This document shows positions 3,848-27,719 of a stretch of 64,000 nucleotides of DNA, one piece after another. The translations under genes and the position numbers were made by a program. This DNA comes from a virus (taxonomy: Duplodnaviria; Caudoviricetes). Under the pieces are notes generated by a model, which did not search any database, had not been told where the DNA came from, and was given only the letters and a program-made list of their open reading frames with translations. The stretch covers positions 2,469 through 66,468 of IMG/VR virus record IMGVR_UViG_3300033066_001827, one strand, 5' to 3'. Within the stretch, counting starts at the first letter, position 1. The number at the start of each line of letters is the position of its first letter.

Positions 3848-3848
3848 T

Positions 3849-7340: not shown

Positions 7341-7341
7341 A

Positions 7342-7866
7342 ATGTCAGCTACCTATGTGAAATCGGTTCGATCTGGGCTGGCCTTGGCCAAGCAAATGCG
7401 AGGTGACAACACCTATCGCATTAATTGCGTCTACATCGAATACCAAAATCTGGCGTTACCTGGGGACACGGCAGTCCTTCCTGCCAGCAGCACCTTCGAT
7501 GGCCTCGAATACTTCAACAACCTAGCCTCGGATTACGACTTTATCCGCGCTCCACTAATCGGAGAACCAGCTCTACGAATTGCCTCTGGCTACACCCCCT
7601 ACTACGGGGAAGGCGAAGGTAACACTTTGGACTTTGTCGCAGCTTCTGCTGCCATACTGGGAGAGCTAGGTCGCCCATTCACGAATGCAGACAACTCCAA
7701 AGTTTACGGTGTTGCGTTGGTAGCAGCTCCTGACTGGACTGACCGCTCTCGCGACATCATCATTGAACGAGCATACTTCTCTGATGTAGGCGAGCAGATC
7801 CTTCGGCCTGAGACTGGCACTTTCTTCGTCGCTTACCCGATTACGTTTGGAGATGGAAGTGTATAG
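7342..7866 (+). CDS. Hypothetical baseplate/fibre-attachment protein
   Basis: 174-aa ORF between the wedge and fibre genes. Confidence 0.5.
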   Translation: MSATYVKSVRSGLALAKQMRGDNTYRINCVYIEYQNLALPGDTAVLPASSTFDGLEYFNNLASDYDFIRAPLIGEPALRIASGYTPYYGEGEGNTLDFVAASAAILGELGRPFTNADNSKVYGVALVAAPDWTDRSRDIIIERAYFSDVGEQILRPETGTFFVAYPITFGDGSV

Positions 7867-8968
7867 CACCATCCGCTATCTGACCGCACAGGACGTGTCC
7901 CCACTCCAGCACTCGGTTCTTAACCGGCCGCTGACCGATTTGGCGCGCAACCTCGAGCACATCAAAAACGTCGTAGACGCCCTGGTGGCTTCTGACAATT
8001 TGCTGGAAGGGAAGGCATGCTCCAGCACAGTAGCTGTCGGCGTTCCGGTGGGCTGGAATGCTGCTTCCAGCCGATTTGAGCCGGCCTTGGCGGGAACACG
8101 CACATCTTTGGGCGTGTGCGTTAGTAAGGATAGCGACACGCTATGTTCCATAAGAATCCTGGGCTACGATCAGATCGACCTGACTGCCTCGACCGGCTCC
8201 GCAGCCCCTTCTGCCGGGCTCTACTACCTGTCTCAGACAGTAGCTGGCACGTTGACCACTGTTCGGCCTGACTCAGGCGTGCAACAGCCTGTACTCTACG
8301 CAGATGGCCAAGGCGGTGTTTACCTGCTGTATGGCGAATACATGCCTCTGCCCGGCCCGGTTGGCTCCACAGGGGCTACAGGTGCCGTCGGGGCCACCGG
8401 AGCAACAGGAGCGCAAGGTCCGACCGGTCCAGCAGCCTTGCCCTCTTTTGCCAGTGGCCAATGGTATGCCGGGCCGCTCAACTTCGCTGCCGGCGGAAAT
8501 AACCACAACTACGCAGCTAACAAGATCATCGCTGTACCGTTCGCAGCTCCTGGCGGTGCAGTCCTTTCCGATCTGGCTGTTCACGTCATGGGCGCCGGCA
8601 ACCCGGGGGATGAGGGGCGACTTGGCATCTATGTCGACAATGGCAATTACCCAGGTGCTCTGCTCACAGCTGCCAATGGCGTCTACAACGCAGCCAGCGC
8701 AGGAGCCAAGGTGGTATCGATCAACAACACCACGATCCGACCAGGTCAGCTGGTGTGGTTGGTGACGTTGATTAATTCCGGAGCCTTTGGCCTGCGCTCC
8801 ACGACTTGCACGCAGGCCTGGGCCTTTAAGGGCTGGGAAAATGGCCTGAGAGAGCCGACCATCGGTTACATGGCCGACAAGGCTTATGGCTCGTTACCGG
8901 GATCGTTTCCCCTCAACGCAGACGAGATCATTGACCTTATCCCTACGATATTCGCCAAGGTGAATTAA
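7847..8968 (+). CDS. Tail fibre protein with a collagen-like Gly-X-Y segment
   Basis: GPVGSTGATGAVGATGATGAQGPTGP (about 9 triplets) between an N-terminal anchor and a beta-sandwich-like C-terminal domain. Confidence 0.7.
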   Translation: MEMEVYSTIRYLTAQDVSPLQHSVLNRPLTDLARNLEHIKNVVDALVASDNLLEGKACSSTVAVGVPVGWNAASSRFEPALAGTRTSLGVCVSKDSDTLCSIRILGYDQIDLTASTGSAAPSAGLYYLSQTVAGTLTTVRPDSGVQQPVLYADGQGGVYLLYGEYMPLPGPVGSTGATGAVGATGATGAQGPTGPAALPSFASGQWYAGPLNFAAGGNNHNYAANKIIAVPFAAPGGAVLSDLAVHVMGAGNPGDEGRLGIYVDNGNYPGALLTAANGVYNAASAGAKVVSINNTTIRPGQLVWLVTLINSGAFGLRSTTCTQAWAFKGWENGLREPTIGYMADKAYGSLPGSFPLNADEIIDLIPTIFAKVN

Positions 8969-9700
8969 GTGGCTGACAAGATGTCGTTGATTTACTCGCT
9001 GGACATCCCAGTCGATTTCACTTGCCGACCAGGTGGTGGAATCGATGTTCATTACATGCGCGTCGAGTTTCCTGCTGGGGTTAAACTGGAATCACTTCCT
9101 CCTCGAGCACTAGAGTGTTGGCCCAAACTCCCGACCACAATCATGGTCACCGAACTACACAGGTTGGTTGACCAGGCCGACGCCGATGTACCAGAGTTCT
9201 CAACCCCAGGCCCGGACACTCCTACTGGTGAGGTCTTAGGCTACGTCAAAGCAGAGTATCAGGAATCTCTTTACCAGGCTCGCTACGAACCTTATAGCGA
9301 AGACAGGTCCACCACTGAATACGTCGAAGCCACCACCAGGGTTGCACGACTGGTGTGTGAAGACGGTAATCCCCCTATTGCAGTGGCGGACCCATTTGGC
9401 GGCATCACCCACGTTTGTCGGAATGGGGGCACACCTTTCATTCAAGAAACAGACGAACTTGATACTAATGGGCCGTTGAACCTTCCACACTACAACCCTG
9501 TTGATATTTCCCGACCAGTTGACGTTTATCGCGTAGTCGTGTCTTCTCAAGAGCGGTACCTCAATATCCCATTGCCAGCCATTGGCTGTTGCGATGGAGA
9601 TTCCAGCACTACTGTTGATCCTTCGTCTACAACTACAACAACGACAACTACTTCATACGAGCCCAGCACCGCAACAACTGAAGAAACTCTACCTCCTTAG
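8969..9700 (+). CDS. Hypothetical virion protein with a Ser/Thr-rich C-terminus
   Basis: Ends SSTTVDPSSTTTTTTTTSYEPSTATTEETLPP; abuts the fibre gene. Confidence 0.6.
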   Translation: MADKMSLIYSLDIPVDFTCRPGGGIDVHYMRVEFPAGVKLESLPPRALECWPKLPTTIMVTELHRLVDQADADVPEFSTPGPDTPTGEVLGYVKAEYQESLYQARYEPYSEDRSTTEYVEATTRVARLVCEDGNPPIAVADPFGGITHVCRNGGTPFIQETDELDTNGPLNLPHYNPVDISRPVDVYRVVVSSQERYLNIPLPAIGCCDGDSSTTVDPSSTTTTTTTTSYEPSTATTEETLPP

Positions 9701-9710
9701 GGTTGATGGC

Positions 9711-10679
9711 GTGCCAGTACTAACAGACAGGGAAAAGCGAGCTCACTGCACGACTAGAACGGCCATCAGCGGGTTTGGTGGGGTTGCTAACAAACCAGCG
9801 TGCGAGCCTGGTGAGCCTACTGGTGACCCGTACAGGGTGCGCTGCCGTTATCCGCTTCCTCGTTACATTGTGGTGTCGTGGTCCACTTCTGAGGACAGAC
9901 CATCGTGGCTGCCTCCAGAAGCTATTCCTCCTGACCCGTTCAACCCCTCTGCAGACATCATCACGACCACTGTGACGCCTTCTGGTGAGGACCCCTCGGT
10001 CCTTTCTTTGTCGTTTCGGTTGAACGACGCGATCGCCAATGAGTATTACGACTACGTCAAAGTCAGCTCGCCCGCGACAGCTGACCCTTTGCTAATCAGC
10101 ATGCAGCCAGATCTTTATAGCCTGGAGAACGCGATCTTTGGTAAGACCTTGAATGTGACAACGACCACTGTGAAACGAGTGGTTTACAACGGAGGTCCAT
10201 TCTTTGGCTTTCCTCCGGAAATAGGCACTGTGTTGTGCCAGGAAACATTGACGGATACCTGTCAGCTTCGCCAGGTGATTACTGGGGCTATCTCCGTACG
10301 GTGCAATCGTTTTTACTACAAACCTAACGGAGACCCGGACTTTCCTGTGTCTGGTTTCGACTCTCCCAATATGCTCCTGGAAGTCAATGGGGTTATAGCG
10401 GCAGGCTTGGCGACAGCTGATATCACGATGAACCCTAAAGACCCGCTAGTCCGTCACATGTTCCTGGCTGGATTGCTCCCTTACAACGGGACCCCGGCCA
10501 GTTGCATAATCCCTGGCCCGCCCAATCTAGGCATAGGTTGGCCGCGCTATGGAAGAGGCGAATTTACTGGTAAATTGATGATTAACGGGCAAAGCCAGAA
10601 TGTCACCGGATCGGCTCTGCATGGGTTTCACCCGAACATGGGCGGGGCGACGGTCAATTTCAGCCTCGGCTTCGCCTAG
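9711..10679 (+). CDS. Hypothetical Cys/Pro-rich virion-region protein
   Basis: ORF 9582-10679; GTG at 9711 chosen to avoid overlap with the upstream gene. Confidence 0.55.
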   Translation: MPVLTDREKRAHCTTRTAISGFGGVANKPACEPGEPTGDPYRVRCRYPLPRYIVVSWSTSEDRPSWLPPEAIPPDPFNPSADIITTTVTPSGEDPSVLSLSFRLNDAIANEYYDYVKVSSPATADPLLISMQPDLYSLENAIFGKTLNVTTTTVKRVVYNGGPFFGFPPEIGTVLCQETLTDTCQLRQVITGAISVRCNRFYYKPNGDPDFPVSGFDSPNMLLEVNGVIAAGLATADITMNPKDPLVRHMFLAGLLPYNGTPASCIIPGPPNLGIGWPRYGRGEFTGKLMINGQSQNVTGSALHGFHPNMGGATVNFSLGFA

Positions 10680-10732
10680 CAGATGTGTTTTTGCTTTGTT
10701 AAAGTGTCGTAGCTCTTCAACCCAGGTGCGGC

Positions 10733-12412
10733 ATGGCCAAGATTACCGACCCAGACTTGCTCGACGACTCAGCAGCAGATGACGGCTCTCAGGAAGTCTA
10801 CATCAACACGACAACTAAGACGATCAAGCTGGTCGTTGTCGGCAATTTGTCGAACACTGGTGTGCAAGACACCAATGGTGTTACGCTTAAGTCGCTGTAC
10901 TCATTCCTGAAAGAGGAATGGAGACTAGACCCGAACAGCAAGAACTTGGCAGCCTTTCCATTCCCCATGGTACCTATCACCGACGAACAGTTCGAGTTCG
11001 TGGACGGCTGGGACCTTCTCAATGACACTGCACGATATCTCATTCGTGACGCAGGCTGGGCTGTAAAAAACACCAGTGGTAACACCACGCAAATGTGGGC
11101 CGGTATTATTGGCCTGGGCGCTATCGAAACAAATGATCAATTGTATTACCAGCAATCAACTGGTGGGTCTGCTGTTAATGTGCAGTTGACTGGCCAGATC
11201 AACCAGGCTGTCCAGATCCTTCGCGATGACGATGGCGACGGTAATTATGCAGAAGGATCGGATTACGACCGACGAACGTTCTTCTCACTATTCTGCCGTG
11301 AATACAACCAGCTCTATGGTAAGTCCAAACTGTCGGACATCGGCGTAACCTCGATGACCTATCAGGCTTATCGCTTCCCTATCAGCACAGGCTCCGACCT
11401 CAAGATCGAAGATACCGATGGCAACGTAGCGGCAAACGCTCCATTTACTTCGATCGTTATCCGTTATTTTGACCAAGCCTTTAGCATTGATGTAGACAGC
11501 ACCACGAACCGCAGTTACGGCATTGTGGTGGACGTAGGTACTCACTCTGGTGTGGACGGCTCAGCCCCCGGTGCCGGCTCTGTGCTGACCACCGCAGAAG
11601 GTGGGATGACTGTCAATGCCTTCGCTGGTGGTGTTCTTCGCATGCACGAAGGCACCAATGAAAACACTGAGTACCCGATTGTCTCAAATACAGCCACAAC
11701 TATTACGGTCACCGGGACGTTGGCTGTCGGGTCGAACATGTCGTTCACAGCCCGGCCGTCTTCGGCGGTAGTGGCCACTGCAGAAGAGATTTACACGAAG
11801 GTTCAATACCTTCTTCGGCAGAACTCCGATATCGATGCAACGGATCAGTCTGTCACAGGTAAGACCGCTGACCAGTTGATGTACTTTGTTGGTGATACGC
11901 TTGTTTGTGGTCGCTCTGCCGCAGGTGTGGCTCCTACAAACCCCAACGGCGGCGGTTCTGGCGTTATTATTGAAGGCTTCAGTGCTTCTGACACGAATCG
12001 CCTGACTTTCTACGATAACTCAGACACAGCCCGAACTTATCCGTTTGTTGCTACCTTGACCATCAACTTCGGAGCAAACTTACAGGCGGATGGGTCGGCT
12101 AAGTACTGGGTGTATTTCACCACACTGCCTGGTGCTGGCAATGACTTTGGCGAATCGGGAGCTGTGCTGGTGGACACTTTTGCCGGCGCAGACATGGCTG
12201 GCAATGTTTCTGGCTCGCCCAGCATCACTCTTCAGTTCGACTACGACAACAATGCTCAGGGCGGGCGGACGCCAGCCACAGACGCCGGTATAACTGTCGT
12301 AGGTATCGGGTTGGCCACTGGGCAGTATGTGCGTACCACTGGTACAATAGCCCGATCGACAACTAACTCGGTTAGCTTGGCCAGTGCTCTGGAACGCAAC
12401 TACGCTACGTAA
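10733..12412 (+). CDS. Putative virion structural protein (fibre-associated)
   Basis: 559 aa, Thr/Gly/Asp-rich; GVTLKSLYSFLKEEW...FPFPMVPITDEQFEF motif that I recall from phage tail regions (unverified). Confidence 0.65.
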   Translation: MAKITDPDLLDDSAADDGSQEVYINTTTKTIKLVVVGNLSNTGVQDTNGVTLKSLYSFLKEEWRLDPNSKNLAAFPFPMVPITDEQFEFVDGWDLLNDTARYLIRDAGWAVKNTSGNTTQMWAGIIGLGAIETNDQLYYQQSTGGSAVNVQLTGQINQAVQILRDDDGDGNYAEGSDYDRRTFFSLFCREYNQLYGKSKLSDIGVTSMTYQAYRFPISTGSDLKIEDTDGNVAANAPFTSIVIRYFDQAFSIDVDSTTNRSYGIVVDVGTHSGVDGSAPGAGSVLTTAEGGMTVNAFAGGVLRMHEGTNENTEYPIVSNTATTITVTGTLAVGSNMSFTARPSSAVVATAEEIYTKVQYLLRQNSDIDATDQSVTGKTADQLMYFVGDTLVCGRSAAGVAPTNPNGGGSGVIIEGFSASDTNRLTFYDNSDTARTYPFVATLTINFGANLQADGSAKYWVYFTTLPGAGNDFGESGAVLVDTFAGADMAGNVSGSPSITLQFDYDNNAQGGRTPATDAGITVVGIGLATGQYVRTTGTIARSTTNSVSLASALERNYAT

Positions 12413-12420
12413 AGGCCCTT

Positions 12421-15400
12421 GTGAGCTCATTTGCTGTCACTACCAGTGTCAATGTCGACACGCTTACTCGTCTGGGTAGTGTGGCTGGTCTTGCTTGGAC
12501 TCGTGTTACCACCACTGCGACTATCACGCAGAACAATCACGGCATGGTTACTGGTGACTTAATCAATGTCACCGTGACGTCCGACGTCACAGCTATTACC
12601 ACTGGCGTTAAGACCATTACATTCATTAATGCCAATAGCTATTCTTTCACTTGTCTTAACGCTGGTGCAGCCTCTGGTACTATCACTGCTGCCCATATCG
12701 ATAACTTTCTGATCAACGGTGGCACGTTGACTGTTGATCAGGACTCCAGGTACGGGACAAACAGCAATACCAGCGGAGCGATGGGCAATATCGCCATGTC
12801 GGCCACCCTGGGTGGTGTTATTGAGTTCAATGCCACGTTGGTCAGGCTTATCCCGTACAACACTGGCACAGGCAATGTTCCTGCCAGTAACACGACAATC
12901 TCTCAAGGCAGCGCCAGCGGCAAGTTGATTGGTGTGTATTCAGCATTGAATGTGGCCCCTACTGCTGCCGGGGCGGCAATGCCGGCGTCGGGCTATGTTA
13001 AGATTAAACAATGGAACAGCGTGGCATTTGCCGCAGGGGCTTTGACTGGTATCGGGGCTACTGCCACAGGTGCCGATGTCGTTGGCTGGATAGAGATTGT
13101 TGGGGCTGACTCTCGAACAGCAACTGTAAACCGGTTGAATACTTTTCGAGTCCGAGGTGAGTGGTATCTTGTTGGAACAACAGACGGTACGCGAGCCACC
13201 ACTTACCAGATACCCTCCAACGGCTCGTCGGTGGTCTACTTGCCTGGTGTCTGGGTGGAGACCGGCTCCAGCACTAATGTGTACGAATTTTACCCTATGG
13301 CTGGGGTACAGACAGCATTACTAGCAAACGTCGGCACAGAAGCCGGTCGCGGCAAGTTCTGCTGGATAACCACCGCTGGTGTCTTGCGATTTGGTCACGA
13401 CGGTTCCAACAGTACAGGCGGGTACATACCTCCCACTGGGCGTCGTATTCGCATCCCCAACATCTTCTTTGTCTGCTGCACGCAGGCAGCCTTGACGGTC
13501 AATGTGCTGCCCAACGCCACTCTGGCCACTCGCTACGACTTTACCACGACAGGTGGCGGGCAGATCGATATCGATAGAGCTTCGATGTGCTGGTACCTGA
13601 GCTGCACTCAGGCCTATAGCGTCACGTTGGCTAATTCGGCTTTCCTCACTCAGATCCTTGTCGCTGAAATTGCTTCAGCGATGACCTGGAGCCAGGTAGG
13701 AGTCGGGTTAGAGGCTACCACTGCCAATCCGCAGTTTGCCTTGTCCATGTCACTATGCTTTGCCGGTGGTACGTTCTCTAACTGCGTGTTCGCTACAGCT
13801 TCTTTGGCTGCTTCTGGCCGTTATGTCATCAGCATAACGGACATTTCAGGGTTCACCTTCACCAGCATCACCACGGTTTCGCTCACGCCAGCTCGAGGTA
13901 ATGCGACCACTGGTGCTATCACCGCGACACGTATGTCCAGTTGTACTTGGACCGGCCTGGGGCTTGGGAGCGGGAGGCTGTTGCTGATCACTTGTGCTAC
14001 ATGCACTTTCACTGGAACAATCTATTACGACGCTGTGGCAGGAACTACTCCTACTACGAATCCGATGTACGCTTTTGACATCAACACCAAGTGCGACACG
14101 ATTAAATTTGACGGGTTGACCTTCCCAGTCACCATGGTTCAACCTTACAGCGGCGTGCTCAACATCGGTGCCGCTGGTTGCAACCTGATTAAGCTTCGGA
14201 ATCTTGGGTCTGCCGCAACTCCGTTGGATATGGGGGACACTCGGCAGGATGGCGCGGCCTGGTCTAGAACTACCACAACAGCTACGGTCACAAAGACAGC
14301 GCATGGGCTGAAGGCCAATGACATCATCTATGTGATCATCTCTTCAGACGTAGCGGCAATCACTGTAGCAGCAAAGACTGTGGCTTCAGCTCCTACAGCA
14401 GACACGTTCACTTTCACTTGTCTTAATGCAGGTGCCGCCTCTGGGACACTGTCTTATTATCCGACAATGACAGCTAACCTCTTCGTGCTGGCTGCAGGTG
14501 CTGCTGCCAGCAATATCGAAGTTAAGCGATGTTACACAACGCACACCAGGACTGGTTTGCAGACTTCCGATAACTCTAGTAAGGGCATTTTGCTAGAGAA
14601 TGTCGGGGTAGACTATGTGTTGAACGCTTCGCTATTGCCCTGGCTCAACGGCAAGCAAAAAGGCTTATTCGCTTTACCGACTCTAGCTGCCCAGACGGCT
14701 TGCTACGGTACACACTGGGCTGATTTTTTCATGGCCGACTTGGCCAGCACCACCGCGGGTGTATCGTGGTCGAGAACCACTACTACTGCCACAGTCACCA
14801 ACACAGATCACAAATTGAAGACAGGCGACACGATTTTGGTCACTGTCAGTAGCAGCACCGCGGCCATCATTTTGGGGCTCAAGACAGTAACAGCCCTGAC
14901 GAAAGACACCTTCACCTTTACTTGTTTGAACGCAGGTAGCGCGTCGGGCACGCTGACTTACCAGCCGTTGATGTCCCGCATTGCTCTCGTGATGAATGAG
15001 GCAACTTCCGACACGACTGACCAGTACACAGGCCTGACAGGCACAGCTCAGTTCACATCCGCCGGTGGGCTCTACATGCCGGCCGTCAACGACGAAATTA
15101 CTTTCGTCATGCCGTACTACATGATCGGCCACACCGGGTTTCCGATTATGGAAGCTGTCATGGCTGGCGGCACGTTGACCAATTACGACATAACTTACGC
15201 CATCGATCAGAACGACGGTAATGGCTATTCCTCGTTTAAGAACTTGTCCTACCCGCGAGCTGGTGGAGGCGGGTCTAACGGTTCAACCAATGTTACGATG
15301 ACCGACACTACTGGAGTGGCTGTTAACGATTATGTCTGGGGTACCAACATAGCGCCCAACGCCAAGGTGCAGTCGATTACTAATAGCACAACCATTGTGG

Positions 15401-15864
15401 TAGATAACGCCAACGTGGGGGCTGTGTCTGGCATACTCAGGTTCAGCCAGCTACCCTTCCAAACTGTCACGAGCGCCCAACTGGGCTTTAAGCTGAAGAT
15501 CAAGATAAAGACCACCACAGTTAATGTGACGGCTATCACATCGTTTTACTTCTGGACTCTGTCGACTACTACTTCCCGGGGCTACCAGTATCCGCTGGAC
15601 CTAGCCACGTTGTCGCTTACCGGGCTGAAGAACCCATCAGAAGTTCGCGTCTACAACACAGGGACGACTACTGAGCTGGCCGGCCAAGAAACGATAACAA
15701 GTGGAACGTTCTCCACGCAAATCGATATTGCGCTGTATCCTACTGTCGACATCTCGGTGTTGGCTCTAAGTTATCAGAACATCCGGTTGCTGTCTCAGAA
15801 CCTCGGTACAGGCCTCTCGATACCTGTTTCACAGGTTGTTGACCGGCAATACCTCAACCCGTAA
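12421..15864 (+). CDS. Large tail fibre/adhesin-like protein with three internal ~65-aa repeats
   Basis: 1147 aa, Thr/Ala/Gly-rich; three copies of W[ST]RxTTTAT[IV]T...H..(K/V)xxD.I.V...F[ST]FTCLNAG[AS]ASGT. Confidence 0.75.
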   Translation: MSSFAVTTSVNVDTLTRLGSVAGLAWTRVTTTATITQNNHGMVTGDLINVTVTSDVTAITTGVKTITFINANSYSFTCLNAGAASGTITAAHIDNFLINGGTLTVDQDSRYGTNSNTSGAMGNIAMSATLGGVIEFNATLVRLIPYNTGTGNVPASNTTISQGSASGKLIGVYSALNVAPTAAGAAMPASGYVKIKQWNSVAFAAGALTGIGATATGADVVGWIEIVGADSRTATVNRLNTFRVRGEWYLVGTTDGTRATTYQIPSNGSSVVYLPGVWVETGSSTNVYEFYPMAGVQTALLANVGTEAGRGKFCWITTAGVLRFGHDGSNSTGGYIPPTGRRIRIPNIFFVCCTQAALTVNVLPNATLATRYDFTTTGGGQIDIDRASMCWYLSCTQAYSVTLANSAFLTQILVAEIASAMTWSQVGVGLEATTANPQFALSMSLCFAGGTFSNCVFATASLAASGRYVISITDISGFTFTSITTVSLTPARGNATTGAITATRMSSCTWTGLGLGSGRLLLITCATCTFTGTIYYDAVAGTTPTTNPMYAFDINTKCDTIKFDGLTFPVTMVQPYSGVLNIGAAGCNLIKLRNLGSAATPLDMGDTRQDGAAWSRTTTTATVTKTAHGLKANDIIYVIISSDVAAITVAAKTVASAPTADTFTFTCLNAGAASGTLSYYPTMTANLFVLAAGAAASNIEVKRCYTTHTRTGLQTSDNSSKGILLENVGVDYVLNASLLPWLNGKQKGLFALPTLAAQTACYGTHWADFFMADLASTTAGVSWSRTTTTATVTNTDHKLKTGDTILVTVSSSTAAIILGLKTVTALTKDTFTFTCLNAGSASGTLTYQPLMSRIALVMNEATSDTTDQYTGLTGTAQFTSAGGLYMPAVNDEITFVMPYYMIGHTGFPIMEAVMAGGTLTNYDITYAIDQNDGNGYSSFKNLSYPRAGGGGSNGSTNVTMTDTTGVAVNDYVWGTNIAPNAKVQSITNSTTIVVDNANVGAVSGILRFSQLPFQTVTSAQLGFKLKIKIKTTTVNVTAITSFYFWTLSTTTSRGYQYPLDLATLSLTGLKNPSEVRVYNTGTTTELAGQETITSGTFSTQIDIALYPTVDISVLALSYQNIRLLSQNLGTGLSIPVSQVVDRQYLNP

Positions 15865-15873
15865 AGGTGATGC

Positions 15874-16482
15874 ATGGCCTACACCTTTGACGGTCCTAAC
15901 AAACTGATCATTTTGAGTTCTGGCACCACGTCCTTTTCTGTCGTTGACCTGTATTCCAGATGGAAAGATTGGATGTTGTTGTCGGACAACTCCAAGTATC
16001 TTGAGGCCATCTCAGGCATTGGTGGTGACCCTCTACCAGGCGGAAATTTCCTTGGCCAAACCTTCTTCCTGGAGAATGACTGGAAGATACGCCCGCAGGA
16101 AGCAAATCACGTCCTGGTCGTCACAGGCAACCTGTACGATCGAGCCGGAGGCAGCCCGTTTGTTAATACAACCGGTGCCTACAATGTCCGCATCGAATCT
16201 CGAGTCAGCAACATTGTTGACCTGATAGCTACTGGCGGCAGTACTATTGACCCAGATGACGTTGCGGACGCCGTGCTAACCAAAGCGGATTCGATATTCC
16301 CTGGTTGGCACTTAGCCCGCAGTGTCCGTTACATGTTGTCAGAGGCGATGGGAGATGTGTCCGGAGCGGTAGACACTGGCACTTCGAACCTGCAATTGTT
16401 TGACCCACAAAACAATTTGATTGCCACTGCTGACGTCGACCAGCTTGGTAATCGACAAATCACTTCCTACGTGCAATCATGA
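15874..16482 (+). CDS. Hypothetical virion-region protein
   Basis: 202 aa; DLYSRWKDW...FFLENDWKIRP pattern; follows the large fibre gene. Confidence 0.65.
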   Translation: MAYTFDGPNKLIILSSGTTSFSVVDLYSRWKDWMLLSDNSKYLEAISGIGGDPLPGGNFLGQTFFLENDWKIRPQEANHVLVVTGNLYDRAGGSPFVNTTGAYNVRIESRVSNIVDLIATGGSTIDPDDVADAVLTKADSIFPGWHLARSVRYMLSEAMGDVSGAVDTGTSNLQLFDPQNNLIATADVDQLGNRQITSYVQS

Positions 16483-17345
16483 GTTGGTCTACCTGGTGGT
16501 CAGCCTGGTCTAGCTGGTGGGAAGGGTCAAGACATCACCCGTCTTCGACTACCGAAGAACCTACAACAGAAGAGCCTGCTCAGACCCCTGCGCCTCCTTC
16601 CGAGTGGCCTGCGAAGGACGGCTCGTCGTTTAGCCCATTTGGGCCAGCGTGGACTGCTGCTCTAGCTGATCCTCGGTGTGTTCAGCCTGAACGCATTTCA
16701 ATCCCAGCACCCTCCGTCATAGCTGTCGATTGCGGAGCTGCCGGCGCTCCGCCAGACCCACCTGACCCTCCCAACTCGTCTGTGCCTATTCGAATTTACG
16801 AGCGAGGCCCGAAGAAGATACTCAAGCCCCTTTTGTCTTCGAATTACGACGGCTCAGAAAACTGGTACTTCTTGTCTGGCATCTGGACAGATCTGCCCTA
16901 TGGAGAAAAGCAGCTCATTCGCAGTTTCCATTCAATCCACTTATATAACACAGGTCGCAGCCCTGTTCTCTTCCCGGTGGCGAGCTTCGTCCGTGGTTAC
17001 ATGATGATTGAGTTGTTGATTGGGACAAGAGATGGTCCGCATAACCGAGCCCCCAAAGGCAGAATGGCCCATTTGCCTGGCAACAGTGCTTACATGCGAA
17101 TCCCGGGCATGTGGCATAGTTACGCTTCACCGTTGAACATCGAAAGCTACCGACCTTTCCGTGCCTCGGTGTGCCTCACCAACGTGATCCCCGGTTTGCT
17201 GCCATTCAGCCAAGCCCAGTCTCCTATCGATGGAGGCGACCCATTCTTCAATAACCTGCCATTCGCTAATGGTTGGTCAACGGCCGGAGACGTGCTAGCC
17301 GGCATGACTGTCGAGCTGGTGATTGAGGAGTTTCAACCGCAGTAG
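16479..17345 (+). CDS. Hypothetical protein with a Trp-rich N-terminus and Ser/Thr/Pro linker
   Basis: MSWSTWWSAWSSWW then PSSTTEEPTTEEPAQTPAPP; ATGA overlap. Confidence 0.6.
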   Translation: MSWSTWWSAWSSWWEGSRHHPSSTTEEPTTEEPAQTPAPPSEWPAKDGSSFSPFGPAWTAALADPRCVQPERISIPAPSVIAVDCGAAGAPPDPPDPPNSSVPIRIYERGPKKILKPLLSSNYDGSENWYFLSGIWTDLPYGEKQLIRSFHSIHLYNTGRSPVLFPVASFVRGYMMIELLIGTRDGPHNRAPKGRMAHLPGNSAYMRIPGMWHSYASPLNIESYRPFRASVCLTNVIPGLLPFSQAQSPIDGGDPFFNNLPFANGWSTAGDVLAGMTVELVIEEFQPQ

Positions 17346-17359
17346 CTTGGAGGCTACCT

Positions 17360-18100
17360 GTGAAAGTGTGTGCTGTATCTTCGAGGATCTATGTGCCCGG
17401 GGCAGAGCCTGGGCCTGACTGTTCGTCGGTGTTGCCCAGCACAACCACGCCCCAGCCCGGCAGTACGACAGAAGACCCAGGCGGAGGTGGCGGAGGCTGC
17501 ATTGGCCAGATCATCGACAGAGCCTGCCGTTTGGCTGATTTACGCGACTCCACGATGCATTGGACTCTCCAGGTCCTGTTGCCTCAGTATGGCGGGAGAC
17601 TCAATCAACCGTTTGACACGAGCAACTACGCTGGGTTTCTGCCTTCTGTGCAAGGAGCCTTCCCAAGCTGGTGCGGAGTCCCGGCTAACTTCCCGGTCAT
17701 TGGCCTTGGGCCTACTGGTATCGTCTACCAGGCTGGCGGCACGGTCCAAGAGAAAGTAGGAGTAAGTATCGTCAGAGAAGCACTTGGCTTTGGTAATTGT
17801 GCATGGAGATTTGGGCGTGGTTACATCGCCTATGTGTTGCCAGCACCTCCTGGCGGGCCATTAGGGCAGCCTTTCAGTGCTATTGGGGCTGCGCACCTGG
17901 AGAACATCGTACCGCAGATTCAATGTCCTGAAACCGGTACTGGTCCGGTTCAAATCGATATAACGGCAAACATGGTGCCACTGATGGTGGGTGGGTCAGA
18001 CGTCTGGCACGGTTTCCCTTTCTATAACTTCCAAACCAACTGCCCCATTGCCCAGTTCATGTTGTCTGGTCCTTTTCATCTTCGAATAACTGGAGGTTAG
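17360..18100 (+). CDS. Hypothetical protein with a Ser/Thr/Pro linker
   Basis: PSTTTPQPGSTTEDPGGGGGG; GGAGG RBS upstream of the GTG. Confidence 0.6.
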   Translation: MKVCAVSSRIYVPGAEPGPDCSSVLPSTTTPQPGSTTEDPGGGGGGCIGQIIDRACRLADLRDSTMHWTLQVLLPQYGGRLNQPFDTSNYAGFLPSVQGAFPSWCGVPANFPVIGLGPTGIVYQAGGTVQEKVGVSIVREALGFGNCAWRFGRGYIAYVLPAPPGGPLGQPFSAIGAAHLENIVPQIQCPETGTGPVQIDITANMVPLMVGGSDVWHGFPFYNFQTNCPIAQFMLSGPFHLRITGG

Positions 18101-18982
18101 ATGCCGCTGCTGACAATTGCGATTCCAACATTTGACGACTACCGTGGCCTCAGCATGACGCTTCAATCGCTGAACATGCACCACCGAGGCCTGGGGTTTG
18201 ACCTGTTGGTATTCGACAACTTCAACAAGTGCGAGAGAAGCAAGAAGGCAGCCAAAAACGCCAAAGCCAGGCTGATTTCTGACGACTCCATCCAAGGGAC
18301 CTGCTATTCCAAATCACGCTGCGTCCAAGAGGCTCTGGGGAAATTTGTTCTTGTCATCGATAGCCATGTCATGTTGGACGTGGGCAGCATCTTCAAGCTG
18401 CTGAACTACCTGGAGAGCAACACTAAGTCTGCCAGGGGTAATATCTACCACGGCCCGCTAGTGTCCAATGCCGGCGAGATCTACGCCACAGAGCTCAGGC
18501 CTACGTGGGGCAGCAACGCCTGGGGTAAGTGGCACAACCGGATTACAAAAGATCACCCACTCCCCGATCAGCCCTTCGATATCTGGGGCCATGGGTGCGG
18601 GGCTTTTTGTGTCAGTAAGGAAGCCTGGCCGGGCTATCACCCCCGTTGCCGTGGCTTTGGCGGGGAAGAGGGCATCATCCAGGAGCATTACCGAGCCAGA
18701 GGAGGTAAAGCCATTTGTCTGCCTTTCCTGCAGTGGACACACAGCTTCAACGATGGAGCCCCAGTCACCCACACCGTGAGCGTGGACGACAAGTTCCGGA
18801 ACAACATGCTGGGGATTACCGGCCTGCCCAACGAAGAACAGCTGTGGGCAGACTGCATCGGCCACTTCTCCCAGTCGTTGCCGATGAACAAAATCGTCGA
18901 GCTCTGCAAGGTATGCCTACCCGGAAAGTACGTCATCGATACCAAGGTGGCTCTTTCCCTTCCAACCACGGTAAACGCATGA
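18101..18982 (+). CDS. GT-A glycosyltransferase resembling polypeptide GalNAc-transferase (GT27/GT2-like)
   Basis: TIAIPTF, LLVFDN, VIDSH (DxH), GCGAFCVSK, FGGEE, WTHSF, FRNN motifs. Confidence 0.8.
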   Translation: MPLLTIAIPTFDDYRGLSMTLQSLNMHHRGLGFDLLVFDNFNKCERSKKAAKNAKARLISDDSIQGTCYSKSRCVQEALGKFVLVIDSHVMLDVGSIFKLLNYLESNTKSARGNIYHGPLVSNAGEIYATELRPTWGSNAWGKWHNRITKDHPLPDQPFDIWGHGCGAFCVSKEAWPGYHPRCRGFGGEEGIIQEHYRARGGKAICLPFLQWTHSFNDGAPVTHTVSVDDKFRNNMLGITGLPNEEQLWADCIGHFSQSLPMNKIVELCKVCLPGKYVIDTKVALSLPTTVNA

Positions 18983-19740
18983 AGATCAGCTGCATTTGCC
19001 TGACTTACAACCGGTTCCCGGTCCGTGGTTACTTGCTCGAGGAAGCGGTCAACAGTTTCCTGCAGCAGGACTATCAGGACAAAGAGCTTGTGGTCATCAA
19101 TGACTGCCCGCAACAACAGCTAGTGTTTAACCATCCTCAAGTATTGATCGTTAATCTGCCTCGGCGTTGTCAGACCTTGGGCGAGAAATACAACCTGGCT
19201 GTCGCCCTGGCCTCTGGTGATCACATAGCCCCTTGGGATGACGACGACATATCCTGCCCTAAGAGGCTCAGTTTCGCCGCAGAGTTGCTCGCCAAGACTG
19301 GCTCTCACTACTACAAGGCCTTTGGGCAATGGTGCCTGACTAAGAAAGGTCTGGTCAAAAGCACCAACTTCGTGGGCCACAACAGCTCTGTCTACTCGCG
19401 GAAAGCTTTCGCCAAGACCGGTGGCTACCCTATCACCAGCTGGGGGCCGGATACGGAGATGGATAGGCGATTAAAGCTGCTTGGTGCACCTGTGTCTGGA
19501 GAGACAAGCGCCCTGGATTACCAGTACATTTACCGGTGGGGCGTGTCCGATCTACACCTTTCTGCACTCGGTGGAGATGACCCTGAACGGGCTTGGGTAT
19601 TGGCAGGAGAGAAGCCAGTTGTCGCCGGGGAGTTCGTCCTAGAGCCTCGCTGGCTATACCCGTACTCCCAGCTGGCTCTGGTTGCCGCCAAGTCAGGCTT
19701 ACAGATACTTCCCACCCCTGACCTAGAGTTCTGGCCATAG
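18979..19740 (+). CDS. Glycosyltransferase family 2
   Basis: ISCICLTYNR, ELVVIND, LGEKYNLAV, WDDDD motifs; ATG at 18979 overlaps the upstream TGA. Confidence 0.9.
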   Translation: MKISCICLTYNRFPVRGYLLEEAVNSFLQQDYQDKELVVINDCPQQQLVFNHPQVLIVNLPRRCQTLGEKYNLAVALASGDHIAPWDDDDISCPKRLSFAAELLAKTGSHYYKAFGQWCLTKKGLVKSTNFVGHNSSVYSRKAFAKTGGYPITSWGPDTEMDRRLKLLGAPVSGETSALDYQYIYRWGVSDLHLSALGGDDPERAWVLAGEKPVVAGEFVLEPRWLYPYSQLALVAAKSGLQILPTPDLEFWP

Positions 19741-19783
19741 AACAGGTACCATGGGCTAGTTCGCCTTTACGGGAGATCCTTCG

Positions 19784-20206
19784 TTGGGGCCATTTAGCGT
19801 ACAAATGCGGATTATCGTCACACCCTCCTCGGTGACGGTTCCCTATTATGTCTTGGAAATGACAGCCCTGGCTGCCGTCAACCTGTCAAAAAAGGTGTTT
19901 GTCTACCGTCGCACAGACGCAGGTACCGACGTCTTTGATGGCATAGCCAGCCCCACAGACCTGTTGTTGATCCCCGAGGACGCCCCCGACGAGGGAAGCG
20001 CTTTTCCTACCAAGTTCCGATCAGCCTCCTACACGAAGATGGACGCCCAGCCATCTGTCATTGAAACTACTAAAAATGACCTGCAGGACTCGATCGACGA
20101 ACTCACCGCGGCCCTGCAGACAGCCTGGGACTTCAGCCAGTCCCAGATTGTCTTCTCGGGCGTGTGGGGAGCTGGGCACAGCACCAGCTGCGTTCTGTCG
20201 GCGTAA
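19784..20206 (+). CDS. Hypothetical protein
   Basis: 140-aa ORF; exact start uncertain. Confidence 0.55.
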   Translation: MGPFSVQMRIIVTPSSVTVPYYVLEMTALAAVNLSKKVFVYRRTDAGTDVFDGIASPTDLLLIPEDAPDEGSAFPTKFRSASYTKMDAQPSVIETTKNDLQDSIDELTAALQTAWDFSQSQIVFSGVWGAGHSTSCVLSA

Positions 20207-20217
20207 GGAGAGCTGGA

Positions 20218-20547
20218 ATGGCGTCGTTGGATTACGCAACTATCAATGTGATACTTTCTGATAGTAGATTCTTAGCGGCTTTCCCGGAGTTAATGGCGAC
20301 TAAGCGCAGAGTGGCTGAAATCTCTCAGAAAGATACCGCCAGTGGTGGTTGTTGTGGTGGTGGGGCCGTAGCAACAGACCCCACAGAGGTCCTTCGGCCT
20401 ATTCTCAGTGATTTGAAGCGGACAGTGGCTACCTGGCCAAAAGCTAGGACTGACGAATTTCTTCGTCTGCTTAATCAGAAGTCATTACAGGTTACATACC
20501 GCGACTCAAACATGTCCGCGGTCAAGACAGTCGTTATTACGCGATAG
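20218..20547 (+). CDS. Hypothetical protein with a GGCCGGG motif
   Basis: AAGGAG RBS before ATG 20218; last gene of the + operon. Confidence 0.6.
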   Translation: MASLDYATINVILSDSRFLAAFPELMATKRRVAEISQKDTASGGCCGGGAVATDPTEVLRPILSDLKRTVATWPKARTDEFLRLLNQKSLQVTYRDSNMSAVKTVVITR

Positions 20548-22399
20548 GCTGGCCAGCTGCTAATTGCTGATTGACGGCCTGTGTGCCGGCAGACTGCTTT
20601 TTCTGTCGCATCAACCCCATGATGATCATGTGCATAGTCGGGTCTTTAGCCCGGATGTCCTGCAGGTACTGCAGGTACATCTGCCTGTTCGTTTGACCAA
20701 TTGGCATCAACCAGCTAGCCCAGGCGTCAGCGATCGACACCTGATCTTCAGGAGTAACGGGGGCCTGAGGGTTAGCCTGGATCGGCGGCGGCATGCCTTG
20801 CTGAGGTGGTTGGCCCTGAGCCTGTCCAGGTGCGCCTTGAGCCTGGCCTTGTTGCTGTTGGCCAGGGGCTGCTGGTGCCATGCCCTGATTGAGCATGTCC
20901 GTAATGCCTTCCCGCTCGATTTGCTTCTGACTATCCTGCTGGGCCTTGGCCTTCTGCACCATGTTGTAGTTGATACGGGTGAGTTCTTCCTTGTTATCGA
21001 GGCCGATGGAGTCGAGACCAGTTTCTTCGCTGACCAGGCCAGCCTGCATGAGGTTGAGGCGAGCCATGGTGCGGTTGATATCGTCGGTGTCGATGGGCTT
21101 GGCCAAAACAGCTTTAGCGGGTTCGATCTGAAGAATCTTGCTGGAGTTCTTCATGACGAACTGCAGTAAGCGGTTGAGATCGTCAACCAGGCTGGAGTAG
21201 GAGCTCTGGATGGTACGTAAGGCCATTGGGGCCACCTGGGTACTGAAGGTGGCCTTGTAGAAGTCGACAGGAATGCCTGCTGCGTTCAGCAGCGCGTCTG
21301 TGTTCTGGTCAATGACTTCCGTGGGAACCAGTTGCTTGATGTCGCCACCGAGCTGCTGGTAATTGAAGCTGTACGGGGACACAAAGATGCCGTGTGGGTC
21401 AGACCGTCTGGCATTCAGCATGTAAGCGATGGCGCCTACGAATTGCGGCCCCATCGACATAGTTAGCGAGGGGTCATTCAGGTTAGGGGTGCCGGGCATA
21501 CCCAGCTTGCCGGTAGGCTGCGGTGAGATCACCTTGATAGGCACGACACTTTCGTGAATCAGGCCTTCATTGTGTCGCAGGCAGTATTGCAGCTGGTAGA
21601 GCAGAGGCTTCAGGTGCAGGGCGTCAGGGATGCCCCAACCACCAGTTCTCCAGCCGGCTGGTGGCTTGTCGAACAGGTGCAACATCTTGCCATTGGTGAA
21701 CTTGAGCCAGGTGCCGGTCTTAACGCACTCAATCTCAACCCAAGGGGTTACGCGCAGGTAATCTTCGTCACCTCGGTTGATTTGCTGTTTGACGACTTCG
21801 CTGGGCTTCCAGAAGTAGATGCGATCGTCGGTGGTCTCGATGTGCTTGATTTCGATTTCATGTGGCGACCAGCGACGTACCTTGAGTCGCTGCTGGTCGT
21901 GATTGTAGATCTCGTATCTCTTCCATTCTCCACGCCGGCTGCAACCTGTGCACTTGGCGAAGAACTTGAAATCGTCGAACTTGAAATCGACTTTATCGAT
22001 AGGGGCCTGCCGAGCCTTGCAGGCGTTACACATCAGGTAGCGAGTGAAGGGGGCCTGCATCGTGCAGAATGAGTTGCCGGTCGACATGCGATCGAAGGCA
22101 GCAGCCTGCAGAACAGAAATGATACCAATCTGGTTGTCGAGGAAGTCTCCGTACTTGTCTTTCTCTTCGTCAGAGCAGTCGGAGACGTTGACCTTAGTGA
22201 CCAGGAATGCGATTACCCGTTTGTAAGCGCGAGTCAGGATAGGATTGTGACGGAGGAGTCGCTCAGCCATCCGGAGCAAGTGGACGATGCTCATCGGATC
22301 AGTAACGCTGCTCATTGTCCCCCAGGGATCGGGGTACAATGAGCCAGCACTACGTTGAATGCCGCCAGCAGAAAGGAAACTGTTTCGGGTAGCCGCCAT
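20537..22399 (-). CDS. Putative portal protein
   Basis: 620 aa; helical N-terminus, GNSF motif, WSPHEI strand, WGIP motif, Gln/Pro-rich C-terminus; near the terminase. Confidence 0.65.
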   Translation of the reverse strand: MAATRNSFLSAGGIQRSAGSLYPDPWGTMSSVTDPMSIVHLLRMAERLLRHNPILTRAYKRVIAFLVTKVNVSDCSDEEKDKYGDFLDNQIGIISVLQAAAFDRMSTGNSFCTMQAPFTRYLMCNACKARQAPIDKVDFKFDDFKFFAKCTGCSRRGEWKRYEIYNHDQQRLKVRRWSPHEIEIKHIETTDDRIYFWKPSEVVKQQINRGDEDYLRVTPWVEIECVKTGTWLKFTNGKMLHLFDKPPAGWRTGGWGIPDALHLKPLLYQLQYCLRHNEGLIHESVVPIKVISPQPTGKLGMPGTPNLNDPSLTMSMGPQFVGAIAYMLNARRSDPHGIFVSPYSFNYQQLGGDIKQLVPTEVIDQNTDALLNAAGIPVDFYKATFSTQVAPMALRTIQSSYSSLVDDLNRLLQFVMKNSSKILQIEPAKAVLAKPIDTDDINRTMARLNLMQAGLVSEETGLDSIGLDNKEELTRINYNMVQKAKAQQDSQKQIEREGITDMLNQGMAPAAPGQQQQGQAQGAPGQAQGQPPQQGMPPPIQANPQAPVTPEDQVSIADAWASWLMPIGQTNRQMYLQYLQDIRAKDPTMHMIIMGLMRQKKQSAGTQAVNQQLAAGQPIA

Positions 22400-26361: not shown

Positions 26362-27719
26362 TGTCCCCAGAGCTTACCGAATACGGGCTGACAATAGAAG
26401 ATCAGCACCTCAAATCTACCGCCTGTGGCTGTGGTAGGGCGATGAAGGCAGTCCCCGGGAAAGACTGGCTTTTCTGCCGTTTTTGCCGCAAAGGCTGCTC
26501 CCGTGTCGTGGTTGCCTCCCCTGAATGGGCCAGCAGACAACCTATTGCCATCCAGGGAAAGCTGCAGATTTACTATCAAACTACAGTGCAGCAAACCATC
26601 TACGCAGAAGCTGCCTGGGGCAAGTTGATAACAGGGGCCGACGCGGATAAATTTCTCCCTCACCTGTCCTTGTTAAAAGACCATGTTCGAGTCGCTACTG
26701 ATCTAGGCATGCTCAGACTGCTCAACCAACGCGCTATCGGCGAGACCTGCAGCTTTGATCCGCCTGTCTTCGTTTTCAGGCTGGAAGACACCCTTGGCCG
26801 AATAACCGGGTTTGCCATGCTCTCTGATGCCAAACCCGGGGCCGAGATTCAAGTGCTCAGCTACGCTCGGCAGGGGCCTCAGGTGGCTTTCCTGCATGAC
26901 ACCCCTGAGCCACTGGTTAACCTGACGGACCTGGGCCTACTGCTTCGACTGCAGTGTCGCAACCTGGCCATGGCGTCTGTCATGGCACCTTTGGCCTTTG
27001 CCAACATGAAAAGCCAGGACTGGTGCCCTGTCGTTGAAGGTGGTTACATCGTGCAAGACGACCGCCTGGACGACAAGCTGCTCAGGTTGTTGGCCACCAG
27101 CAACTGCCTTTTAAGGTTGCGAGAGCTGTCTTCCCGCAAAGAGACCAAGCTGCTGCCTACCACCAGCAAGCAGTGGTACAACCTGGTGTGCAAGGAAGCA
27201 GCAGACTGGCCGGTAACTGCTGCCAACTACTTCACAAGCGTCAGCCCAGACATCGCGGCTGTGATGATTCATTCGGCAGGGCTTTCTGAGCTGACTATCG
27301 CTCGACTGCTCAGCAAGTGCCGACCAGACACAGCTAACAGGTTGAAAGTGGCGATCAAACGACAACCCGCCACGTATCGGTTCTCCAGCGACATCACTGT
27401 CTTTGACGATGGGGTGAAGTGGACGAATCACCTGGGCGAGACTGTGTGCTCGGGCAGCCTGCGGGTGGATACCGTCACCGAGGAAAACGGCAAGCCCATC
27501 TACCACTGTACGCTCATGACAGAGCAAGGCCCCTTTACCTTCACCTGCGGCAAGGAATTGGAGCGAGATGGCCTGACCGTAGCCATGCGTAAATGCCTTC
27601 TGCAAGGATTGTCGCTGACTTACCTGCAAAGCTACAGCCGTCACGCTCTGCAGATAGCCATTGGCCTTCGTCCCATCCGCAAGCTCTCAGTCGCGGATAG
27701 TGCCCTGAATCTCGCGTAG
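26355..27719 (+). CDS. Zn-finger protein with weak primase-like features
   Basis: N-terminal CxC...CxxC; FVFRLEDTLGRITGF resembles the DnaG core; no clear TOPRIM acidic motifs. Confidence 0.5.
   Translation: MSLSPELTEYGLTIEDQHLKSTACGCGRAMKAVPGKDWLFCRFCRKGCSRVVVASPEWASRQPIAIQGKLQIYYQTTVQQTIYAEAAWGKLITGADADKFLPHLSLLKDHVRVATDLGMLRLLNQRAIGETCSFDPPVFVFRLEDTLGRITGFAMLSDAKPGAEIQVLSYARQGPQVAFLHDTPEPLVNLTDLGLLLRLQCRNLAMASVMAPLAFANMKSQDWCPVVEGGYIVQDDRLDDKLLRLLATSNCLLRLRELSSRKETKLLPTTSKQWYNLVCKEAADWPVTAANYFTSVSPDIAAVMIHSAGLSELTIARLLSKCRPDTANRLKVAIKRQPATYRFSSDITVFDDGVKWTNHLGETVCSGSLRVDTVTEENGKPIYHCTLMTEQGPFTFTCGKELERDGLTVAMRKCLLQGLSLTYLQSYSRHALQIAIGLRPIRKLSVADSALNLA

Follow-up and report, generated by a model that had tools for sequence, protein, structure and literature searches.

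The polypeptide GalNAc-transferases (ppGalNAc-Ts) of glycosyltransferase (GT) family 27 are the initiators of mucin-type O-glycosylation, and to our knowledge both this modification and its GT27 initiators are treated as a eukaryotic invention. Among phages, the only documented virion glycosylation that we know of is that of mycobacteriophages. For Che8 gp110, Corndog gp38 and Myrna (Freeman et al. 2023, via PMC12363180), there are reports of GTs encoded among the structural genes, several GTs in series, and glycans on the Ser/Thr-rich tails of virion proteins. In bacteria, the HPr-rel-A system of NCBIfam/TIGRFAMs, comprising an HprK-related kinase A (TIGR04352) and a PqqD-family chaperone (TIGR04353), is a predicted peptide-modification cassette. 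Here, we analyzed 64,000 of the 66,468 bases of the IMG/VR record IMGVR_UViG_3300033066_001827 (this stretch is called the window), in which two coupled GT genes, GT-1 and GT-2, follow two open reading frames (ORFs), ORF-A and ORF-B. The fold and catalytic motifs of GT-1, its coupling to GT-2 and a family-wide linkage to Ser/Thr-rich proteins are directly supported by the data, and it is probable that GT-1 primes the Ser/Thr tracts of neighbouring phage proteins and GT-2 extends the glycan, so that proteins of the structural module become glycosylated. Confidence in protein glycosylation is higher for the whole family than for the window. O-glycosylation of protein Ser/Thr residues by a GT-A enzyme is known; the setting and the enzyme family are new, and the literature searches yielded no account, for phages or for bacteria, of a GT27-like enzyme accompanying poly-Thr proteins, nor any paper on the HPr-rel-A system.

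The AlphaFold2 model of GT-1, built on an alignment of 45 homologues, has a predicted local distance difference test score (pLDDT) of 94.5 and a predicted template modelling score (pTM) of 0.91. When this model was compared with the PDB using Foldseek, all of the top 50 matches were ppGalNAc-Ts, with a best expectation value (E) of 4e-16 and template modelling (TM) scores of 0.70-0.72. An exhaustive search of 48,161 representative chains with VIA-align, which is independent of Foldseek, ranked mouse GalNAc-T1 first (Z 21.0 over 257 residues, root-mean-square deviation 3.4) and Toxoplasma GalNAc-T3 second (Z 20.5). After the GT27 enzymes came chondroitin polymerase, the best GT2 (Z 18.4), followed by WrtF (17.0) and TarS (16.7). 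Across the searches, the overall GT-A fold nearest to GT-1 is that of GT27, represented by human GalNAc-T1, T2, T7 and T10 and Toxoplasma GalNAc-T3. GT-2 served as a control (model pLDDT 80.1): here WrtF, CgT, SpsA and TarS tied at Z of about 18, and GT27 appeared only at rank 21 with Z 13.9. Since the same procedure yields generic GT2 matches for GT-2, the GT27 signal is specific to GT-1. The preliminary description of this locus had proposed a GT27 resemblance and a structure search to separate GT27 from GT2; two independent fold searches now rank a ppGalNAc-T first, ahead of every GT2, which the control does not. As modelled, GT-1 is GT27-like in fold and motif order, and a mucin-type activity in the strict sense of a GalNAc-alpha linkage is not established by this resemblance.

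The four ORFs of the preliminary description were found where it had placed them, and all motifs that it quoted for GT-1 are present. The D-x-H (D87-S88-H89), a putative G-G-E Gal/GalNAc-T motif and a downstream His follow each other in GT-1 in the same order as in GT27. GT-1 homologues number in the hundreds, and across the 45 aligned ones D87, H89, G165, F186-G-G-E-E190, L207-P208, W212, H214 and N234 are invariant; these motifs are therefore functional signatures rather than chance occurrences. In the alignment with human GalNAc-T7, FGGEE falls on WGGEN, with Glu in place of Asn, and H214 falls on the metal-binding His (...GH).

At the sequence level, both enzymes exceed the curated cut-off of 23.3 bits for Pfam Glycos_transf_2 (PF00535), GT-1 with 25.2 and GT-2 with 40.0 bits. 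The PF00535 model also spans the eukaryotic GT27 enzymes, so that this match leaves GT2 versus GT27 undecided. A phmmer search of PDB sequences with GT-1 alone returned only DPMS (E 0.86). With a family profile, the nucleotide-binding, N-terminal half of GT-1 best matches bacterial GT2s (chondroitin synthase, E 4e-10), and both chondroitin synthase and TarP score better there than GT27. Only GT27 chains align with the full-length profile through the C-terminal acceptor half (FGGEE...WxH), with E of 1.7e-5 for GalNAc-T7 and 1.9e-5 for GalNAc-T10. A profile of the C-terminal half retrieved GalNAc-T7 only, at a weak E of 0.11, and because such restricted profiles (half-domain or residues 61-240) reach only E 0.11-0.14, the sequence link to GT27 is weak without the fold. 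Compared with ordinary GT2s (SpsA, TarS/TarP, WrtF, K4CP and the PglI-type AvpGT), GT-1 shares the nucleotide-binding half and GT-2 shares fold, sequence and the DDD motif, whereas these enzymes show no sequence match to the acceptor half of GT-1 and rank below GT27 in fold.

Several features set GT-1 apart from GT27. Identity is approximately 14-18%, FGGEE stands in place of WGGEN, and the enzyme is filed under Pfam GT2, with its N-terminal half nearer to bacterial GT2s. In contrast to the Golgi-lumenal GT27 enzymes, GT-1 is predicted to be cytoplasmic. A ricin-type (CBM13) lectin domain is absent, as a short helical stretch completes the chain at residue 293 and PF00535 is its only Pfam match; a type II membrane anchor is likewise absent, the first beta strand (residues 4-10) lying at the very start with no hydrophobic N-terminal segment. 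Lacking both lectin domain and membrane anchor, GT-1 is therefore GT27-like rather than a member of GT27. Neither GT-1 nor GT-2 contains a membrane segment. In GT-2, D88-D89-D90, a D-x-D-type metal motif, is invariant in seven homologues, and its best solved sequence relative is a PglI-type beta-1,3-glucosyltransferase (E 0.0015). The ATGA overlap at 18979-18982, which the preliminary description had read as coupling of the GT2 gene to GT-1, is real, and the adjacency of the two genes is kept in four further loci (L014, L073, L080 and L370). On the basis of this coupling and conserved adjacency, GT-2 is proposed to be the extending transferase that adds the second sugar.

The GT-1 family comprises at least 1,281 clusters at 50% identity (E up to 1e-30), found on at least 467 IMG/VR contigs and in 373 species-representative bacterial genomes. 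No match was obtained when GT-1 and a central family member were compared by tblastn with 50,697 GenBank phage records, or when window positions 16000-20000 were compared by blastn with GenBank phages. The family thus appears confined to uncultured phages, or its near records are absent from the GenBank set searched; these searches likewise detected no sequence homology to the mycobacteriophage enzymes. In 80 viral loci, the GT-1 homologue typically closes a plus-strand structural block, with Mtd_N, tail-collar and Gp10_C domains upstream and convergent replication genes (gp32, exonuclease, DnaB and primase) downstream. Some family members are flanked by terminase and portal, or adjoin RecA or a nuclease, and have no Ser/Thr-rich neighbour.

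Like GT27, whose known setting is mucin, the GT-1 family is paired, here genomically, with Pro/Thr/Ser-rich mucin-like tracts. After dereplication of the viral loci at 70% identity into 39 groups, and with Ser/Thr-rich defined as at least 12 Ser/Thr in 15 residues, 19 groups carry a Ser/Thr-rich ORF within 4 kb of the GT-1 homologue, mostly as the adjacent upstream gene on the same strand. The tracts contain Thr runs of 15-25 residues or repeats such as TTTTEAP or TTPKVTTS, extend up to 150 residues and are often bounded by Cys; judged from their sequences, they are true mucin-like Pro/Thr/Ser (PTS) domains. Ser/Thr-rich ORFs are concentrated near the enzyme, with 21 of 348 ORFs within 4 kb against 3 of 319 farther away (one-sided Fisher p 2.4e-4). 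A search anchored on the poly-Thr fibre of L050 gave nine close loci, too few for a presence/absence test, and was replaced by a primase-anchored set. In its 27 dereplicated related groups, GT-1 and poly-Thr occurred together in nine, GT-1 without poly-Thr in five, poly-Thr without GT-1 in three and neither in ten (odds ratio 6, p 0.038). Approached from the opposite side, in 7 of 120 viral loci selected by 14 consecutive ACN codons alone, the tract is followed at a distance of 0.1-3 kb by a GT-1 homologue, against a background of the order of 467 per 2.9 million contigs, which is a lower bound. The co-occurrence of the GT with Thr-rich ORFs that the preliminary description had suggested checking is therefore positive at the family level, in phages and, independently, in bacteria.

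Further sugar-tailoring genes often follow viral GT-1 homologues: a single 923-aa protein combining GT2, GT32 and two methyltransferase domains in L007, GT4 and GT9 genes in L078, and the GT-2 homologue in L014, L073 and L080. In L013, L060 and L079, genes of one cluster directly precede and overlap the GT-1 homologue, and the L060 member, the sole one scanned, is a radical-SAM/SPASM protein. Radical-SAM/SPASM enzymes are common in peptide-maturation cassettes. Just downstream of a fused GT-1 homologue, L039 encodes a plus-strand protein (12171-13931 of that locus) with an Ig (Hoc-like head-decoration) domain and mucin-like tracts, which implies that in some phages the glycosylated protein may decorate the head instead of the tail.

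Evidence that is independent of phage genome architecture comes from 71 bacterial loci (Thermomicrobiales and other Chloroflexota, Hyphomicrobiales, Bryobacteraceae, Gemmataceae and others). In 17 of them, a small protein ending in poly-Thr or poly-Ser is encoded just upstream on the same strand, and such ORFs make up 18 of 379 within 2 kb against none of 588 farther away (p 3.7e-8). Many of these poly-Thr proteins, judged by eye, open with a twin-arginine leader resembling SRRxFLK (leader plus poly-Thr in L203, L204, L213, L215, L218, L231, L255 and L278), and two tested ones (L205 and L274) contain a PqqD peptide-chaperone domain. The bacterial enzymes usually span 600-1,000 residues, of which the GT-1 part is one domain. 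Its partner in these fusions is often an HprK-related Ser kinase domain (TIGR04352; for example in L207 and L235), and elsewhere Stealth plus LicD plus cytidylyltransferase, sulfotransferase plus GT25, or ATP-grasp; a PF14907 nucleotidyltransferase is also found near bacterial homologues. In a FastTree phylogeny of 120 GT-1 domains, the viral and bacterial sequences are largely apart.

The combination of a Ser kinase, a peptide chaperone and a poly-Thr protein indicates a peptide acceptor, and the twin-arginine leaders would agree with a cytoplasmic modification that precedes export. The bacterial contexts thus suggest cytoplasmic O-glycosylation, perhaps together with phosphorylation, of proteins exported by the twin-arginine (Tat) route. 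In their kinase fusions, PqqD domains and poly-Thr neighbours, the bacterial GT-1 homologues resemble the HPr-rel-A system. In contrast, the window GT-1 is a bare catalytic domain: it has no NCBIfam match, its length leaves no room for a kinase domain, and the neighbours tested gave no PqqD match. Since phage and bacterial relatives alike adjoin poly-Thr proteins, the most likely acceptor of GT-1 is a Ser/Thr-rich protein.

These contexts bear on a different role for the pair, namely synthesis or modification of a non-protein host-envelope glycan (lipopolysaccharide, capsule or exopolysaccharide) by auxiliary or conversion genes at the module boundary that might, for example, block superinfection or change the cell surface. 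Both enzymes do pass the Pfam GT2 model, the named proteins closest to GT-2 (PglI-type, WcaA and EpsE) act on polysaccharides or lipid-linked oligosaccharides, and the N-terminal half of GT-1 is nearer in sequence to chondroitin synthase and TarP than to GT27; however, the whole GT-1 domain, unlike GT-2, has its nearest fold in the protein-modifying GT27 enzymes. Published readings of aquatic-phage GTs presume host-surface or DNA targets, and the family members away from fibres (near terminase/portal, RecA or nuclease) would suit a surface role. On the other side, the two enzymes are without a membrane segment, and no sugar-nucleotide, flippase or polymerase genes were seen among the subset of window ORFs scanned with Pfam. 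The poly-Thr, PqqD and Ser-kinase contexts, recurring in what we would call two domains of life, are also unexpected for a polysaccharide enzyme. We therefore regard a host-glycan role as unlikely and favour glycosylation of phage proteins.

Within the window, three proteins are candidate acceptors. ORF-A has a Trp-rich N-terminus, then a Pro/Thr/Glu linker with TTEEPTTEEP (PSSTTEEPTTEEP at 16539-16577), then a globular part. ORF-B has an N-terminal P-x-TTT...TTE(D)P linker (STTTPQPGSTTEDP at 17438-17479) followed by GGGGGC. The best mucin-like candidate is the C-terminal tail of ORF 8969-9700, which includes SSTTTTTTTTSYEP at 9623-9664 and reaches 10 Ser/Thr in 10 residues, the maximum in the window; such a C-terminal Ser/Thr tail is also a feature of the mycobacteriophage system. 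The preliminary description had spoken of neighbouring mucin-like virion proteins, which was generous: the Ser/Thr tracts exist, but they are short (10 of 10 Ser/Thr in one ORF, 6 of 10 in two), and virion membership is putative. Only two orthologues each are found for ORF-A and ORF-B, and their contigs also carry the closest GT-1 orthologues; for these closest relatives (P0002-P0011) the neighbourhood is known through the ORF-A and ORF-B orthologues only. TTEEPTTEEP is invariant in the ORF-A orthologues, and T28-T30 and T36 (a TTT...T core) are invariant across the three ORF-B orthologues; in both cases the flanks vary and more Thr surrounds the conserved residues. The ESM Atlas gave low-confidence models of ORF-A and ORF-B (pLDDT 0.28 and 0.43) with no usable neighbours, and a complex prediction of GT-1 with Mn and ORF-A residues 11-60, run without controls, scored 0.00 and counts neither way.

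For the proposed pathway, what we infer comprises the acceptor, the sugar donor, the order in which the enzymes act, the incorporation of the acceptor proteins into virions and the advantage gained by the phage. GT-1 and GT-2 would be produced late in infection from the same coupled string as the tail-fibre proteins. GT-1, as a soluble cytoplasmic Mn2+-dependent GT-A enzyme with a ppGalNAc-T-like catalytic domain, would hold Mn2+ through D87, H89 and H214, bind a host nucleotide sugar and place the first sugar onto Thr/Ser hydroxyls of short unfolded Pro/Thr/Ser/Glu tracts in proteins of the structural module. Here, the tracts modified would be the tail at the C-terminus of ORF 8969-9700 and the two N-terminal linkers, one in ORF-A and one in ORF-B. 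GT-2, with its DDD motif, would add the next sugar before the modified proteins join the tail. Tail or fibre parts would thereby gain small mucin-like linkers covered with glycans that would probably stiffen the linkers and guard them against proteases or unwanted sticking.

Compared with the mycobacteriophage system, the proposed acceptors are fibre-module proteins and, in the wider family, long PTS domains, instead of capsid and tail-tube tails. The hosts are also different; no host is recorded for the IMG/VR and metagenome entries, which are taken as mostly environmental, and a role in shielding from antibodies would not apply to an environmental phage. If correct, the proposed glycosylation would represent a prokaryotic and viral counterpart, and possibly the origin, of the mucin-type pathway. 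Many environmental phages would then carry glycan-coated fibres, with consequences for adsorption, host range, particle stickiness and virion stability, and cytoplasmic glycosylation of poly-Thr proteins ahead of Tat export would be suggested for bacteria. Such small soluble enzymes could also be used for the synthesis of mucin-like glycopeptides.

A number of observations weigh against glycosylation of the neighbouring proteins by the pair. The near/far and co-variation statistics carry no correction for shared ancestry, and about half of the phage groups and about three quarters of the bacterial loci have no Ser/Thr-rich neighbour at the threshold used. Three related phage groups have poly-Thr fibres and no GT-1 nearby: in L307, L317 (minus-strand ORFs starting near 12565) and L363, the poly-Thr fibre genes occupy the same position as in GT-1-bearing T4-like phages, and the 10 kb examined contain no GT-1 homologue, so that their tracts are either served by another enzyme or unglycosylated. 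Pfam and PHROGs searches of ten poly-Thr ORFs gave almost no structural domains, and because most of these ORFs lack a recognisable one, the label of fibre rests on their position.

Other such points concern the window itself. Its GT-1 clade (P0001-P0011) forms a well-supported, long separate branch (1.29 substitutions per site) and is only about 35% identical to the main family, from which the poly-Thr linkage data come, with all catalytic positions kept. The neighbours in the window carry short tracts only (TTEEPTTEEP, T8) and no long poly-Thr domains. Of the occurrences of the pattern [ST]T[ED][ED] in the window, four fall in three tail ORFs and one lies elsewhere, an enrichment that is only suggestive because about two occurrences are expected by chance on a rough estimate. 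ORF-A and ORF-B are ORFans and only putative virion proteins. The window is thus a divergent, short-tract and weaker example of the family.

A bolder proposal places the GT-1 family as a sister group of the ppGalNAc-Ts in prokaryotes and viruses, or possibly as their ancestor. Its members would carry out mucin-type-like O-glycosylation in the cytoplasm, acting on Pro/Thr/Ser tracts of phage fibres and of Tat-exported bacterial proteins. The clade of this jumbo phage would then have moved from long poly-Thr to a short acidic sequon, T-T-E-E/D-P, common to three otherwise unrelated tail-module proteins, giving a phage-encoded, sequon-directed protein O-glycosylation. We offer this only tentatively and consider it rather doubtful.

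The short tracts also leave some room for GT-1 glycosylating other proteins than its neighbours, either phage proteins from the unseen two thirds or so of the genome, such as a capsid decoration, or proteins of the host. The CheckV completeness of the record is approximately 33%, one relative bears its mucin-like tract on an Ig/Hoc-like protein of head-decoration type, and glycosylation of capsid and tail-tube proteins is reported for mycobacteriophages (Freeman et al. 2023, via PMC12363180). Such targets are nevertheless quite unlikely, since the Ser/Thr-rich gene is usually the immediate upstream neighbour in relatives, and both ORF-A and ORF-B have Ser/Thr motifs that stay unchanged in the orthologues, which likewise retain the GT pair. 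That the pair glycosylates modified bases of the phage DNA to evade restriction, as in T-even and other phages, is very improbable: phage GTs commonly act in this way (Pyle et al. 2024) and T4-like relatives have GT-1 near replication genes, though on the opposite strand, but the window GT-1 shares its orientation with late structural genes and directly adjoins these instead of replication genes, the replication-module ORFs tested revealed neither a hydroxymethylase nor a base-modification gene (two thirds of the genome being unseen), the bacterial homologues lie in peptide-modification-like contexts, and the nearest folds are peptide GTs.

Glycosylation of structural-module proteins agrees with the genomic position of the pair (Table 1). 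Given the CheckV completeness, the source is taken to be a fragment of a phage of about 200 kb, and the closest GT-1 relative is carried on a 212-kb contig. Positions 844-20547 form a single, densely packed, co-directional string of plus-strand genes, which converges on a large minus-strand ORF. The stop of ORF-B abuts the start of GT-1 (TAGATG at 18098-18103), with GGAGG 7 nt upstream, and a second ATGA overlap lies at 16479, the start of ORF-A. The preliminary description had placed the pair inside the tail operon. The two genes indeed encode the last enzymes of a packed string with Baseplate_J, collagen-like and fibre-like ORFs; the limits of an operon are not demonstrable, because promoter and terminator scans of 8500-21000 stayed at the level of shuffled sequence.

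Table 1. Features of the window discussed in the text, in order of position.
Feature	Coordinates	Strand	Description
Baseplate_J	4237-5889	+	Pfam match
Collagen-like ORF	7847-8968	+	In the gene string
ORF 8969-9700	8969-9700	+	243 aa, fibre region; last ~35 residues mucin-like (S2-T8 run, then STATTEETLPP, stop; tract 9623-9697)
559-aa ORF		+	In the gene string, alongside the fibre-like ORF
Fibre-like protein	12421-15864	+	1147 aa; three internal repeats; upstream of the GT pair in the same string
ORF-A	16479-17345	+	288 aa; candidate acceptor
ORF-B	17360-18100	+	246 aa; candidate acceptor
GT-1	18101-18982	+	293 aa; soluble GT-A glycosyltransferase, GT27 (ppGalNAc-T)-like
GT-2	18979-19740	+	253 aa from the ATG at 18979; ordinary GT2
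Two small ORFs	19784-20547	+	140 and 127 aa; directly after GT-2; same order in the 50%-identity relative L370
Large converging ORF	20537-22399	-	Portal-like by position only; no Pfam match
Terminase large subunit	27687-29537		

A metagenome scan for the window clade retrieved a single relative, the 2.8-kb contig L370. At 50% identity, GT-1, ATGA, GT-2, the two small ORFs and the converging portal-like ORF succeed one another there as in the window, from which we conclude that GT-1 and GT-2 are a conserved unit of this lineage.

For the remaining proteins of the string, PHROGs returned nothing for the ten window proteins tested, and Pfam returned nothing for ORF-A, ORF-B, 15874-16482 and 10733-12412. 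The fibre-like protein matched an endosialidase beta-barrel weakly (20.8 bits, below the Pfam cut-off of 35), and it contains three copies of a module of about 45 residues that starts W-(S/T)-R-(V/T)-T-T-T-A-T-(I/V)-T. The converging ORF has a long Gln/Gly/Pro/Ala low-complexity stretch near its C-terminus, as does its counterpart in L370. Farther downstream, the plus-strand ORF at 40901-44101 (1066 aa) encodes a family A DNA polymerase that carries, in the same ORF, an N-terminal domain of the uracil-DNA-glycosylase superfamily (residues 110-257).

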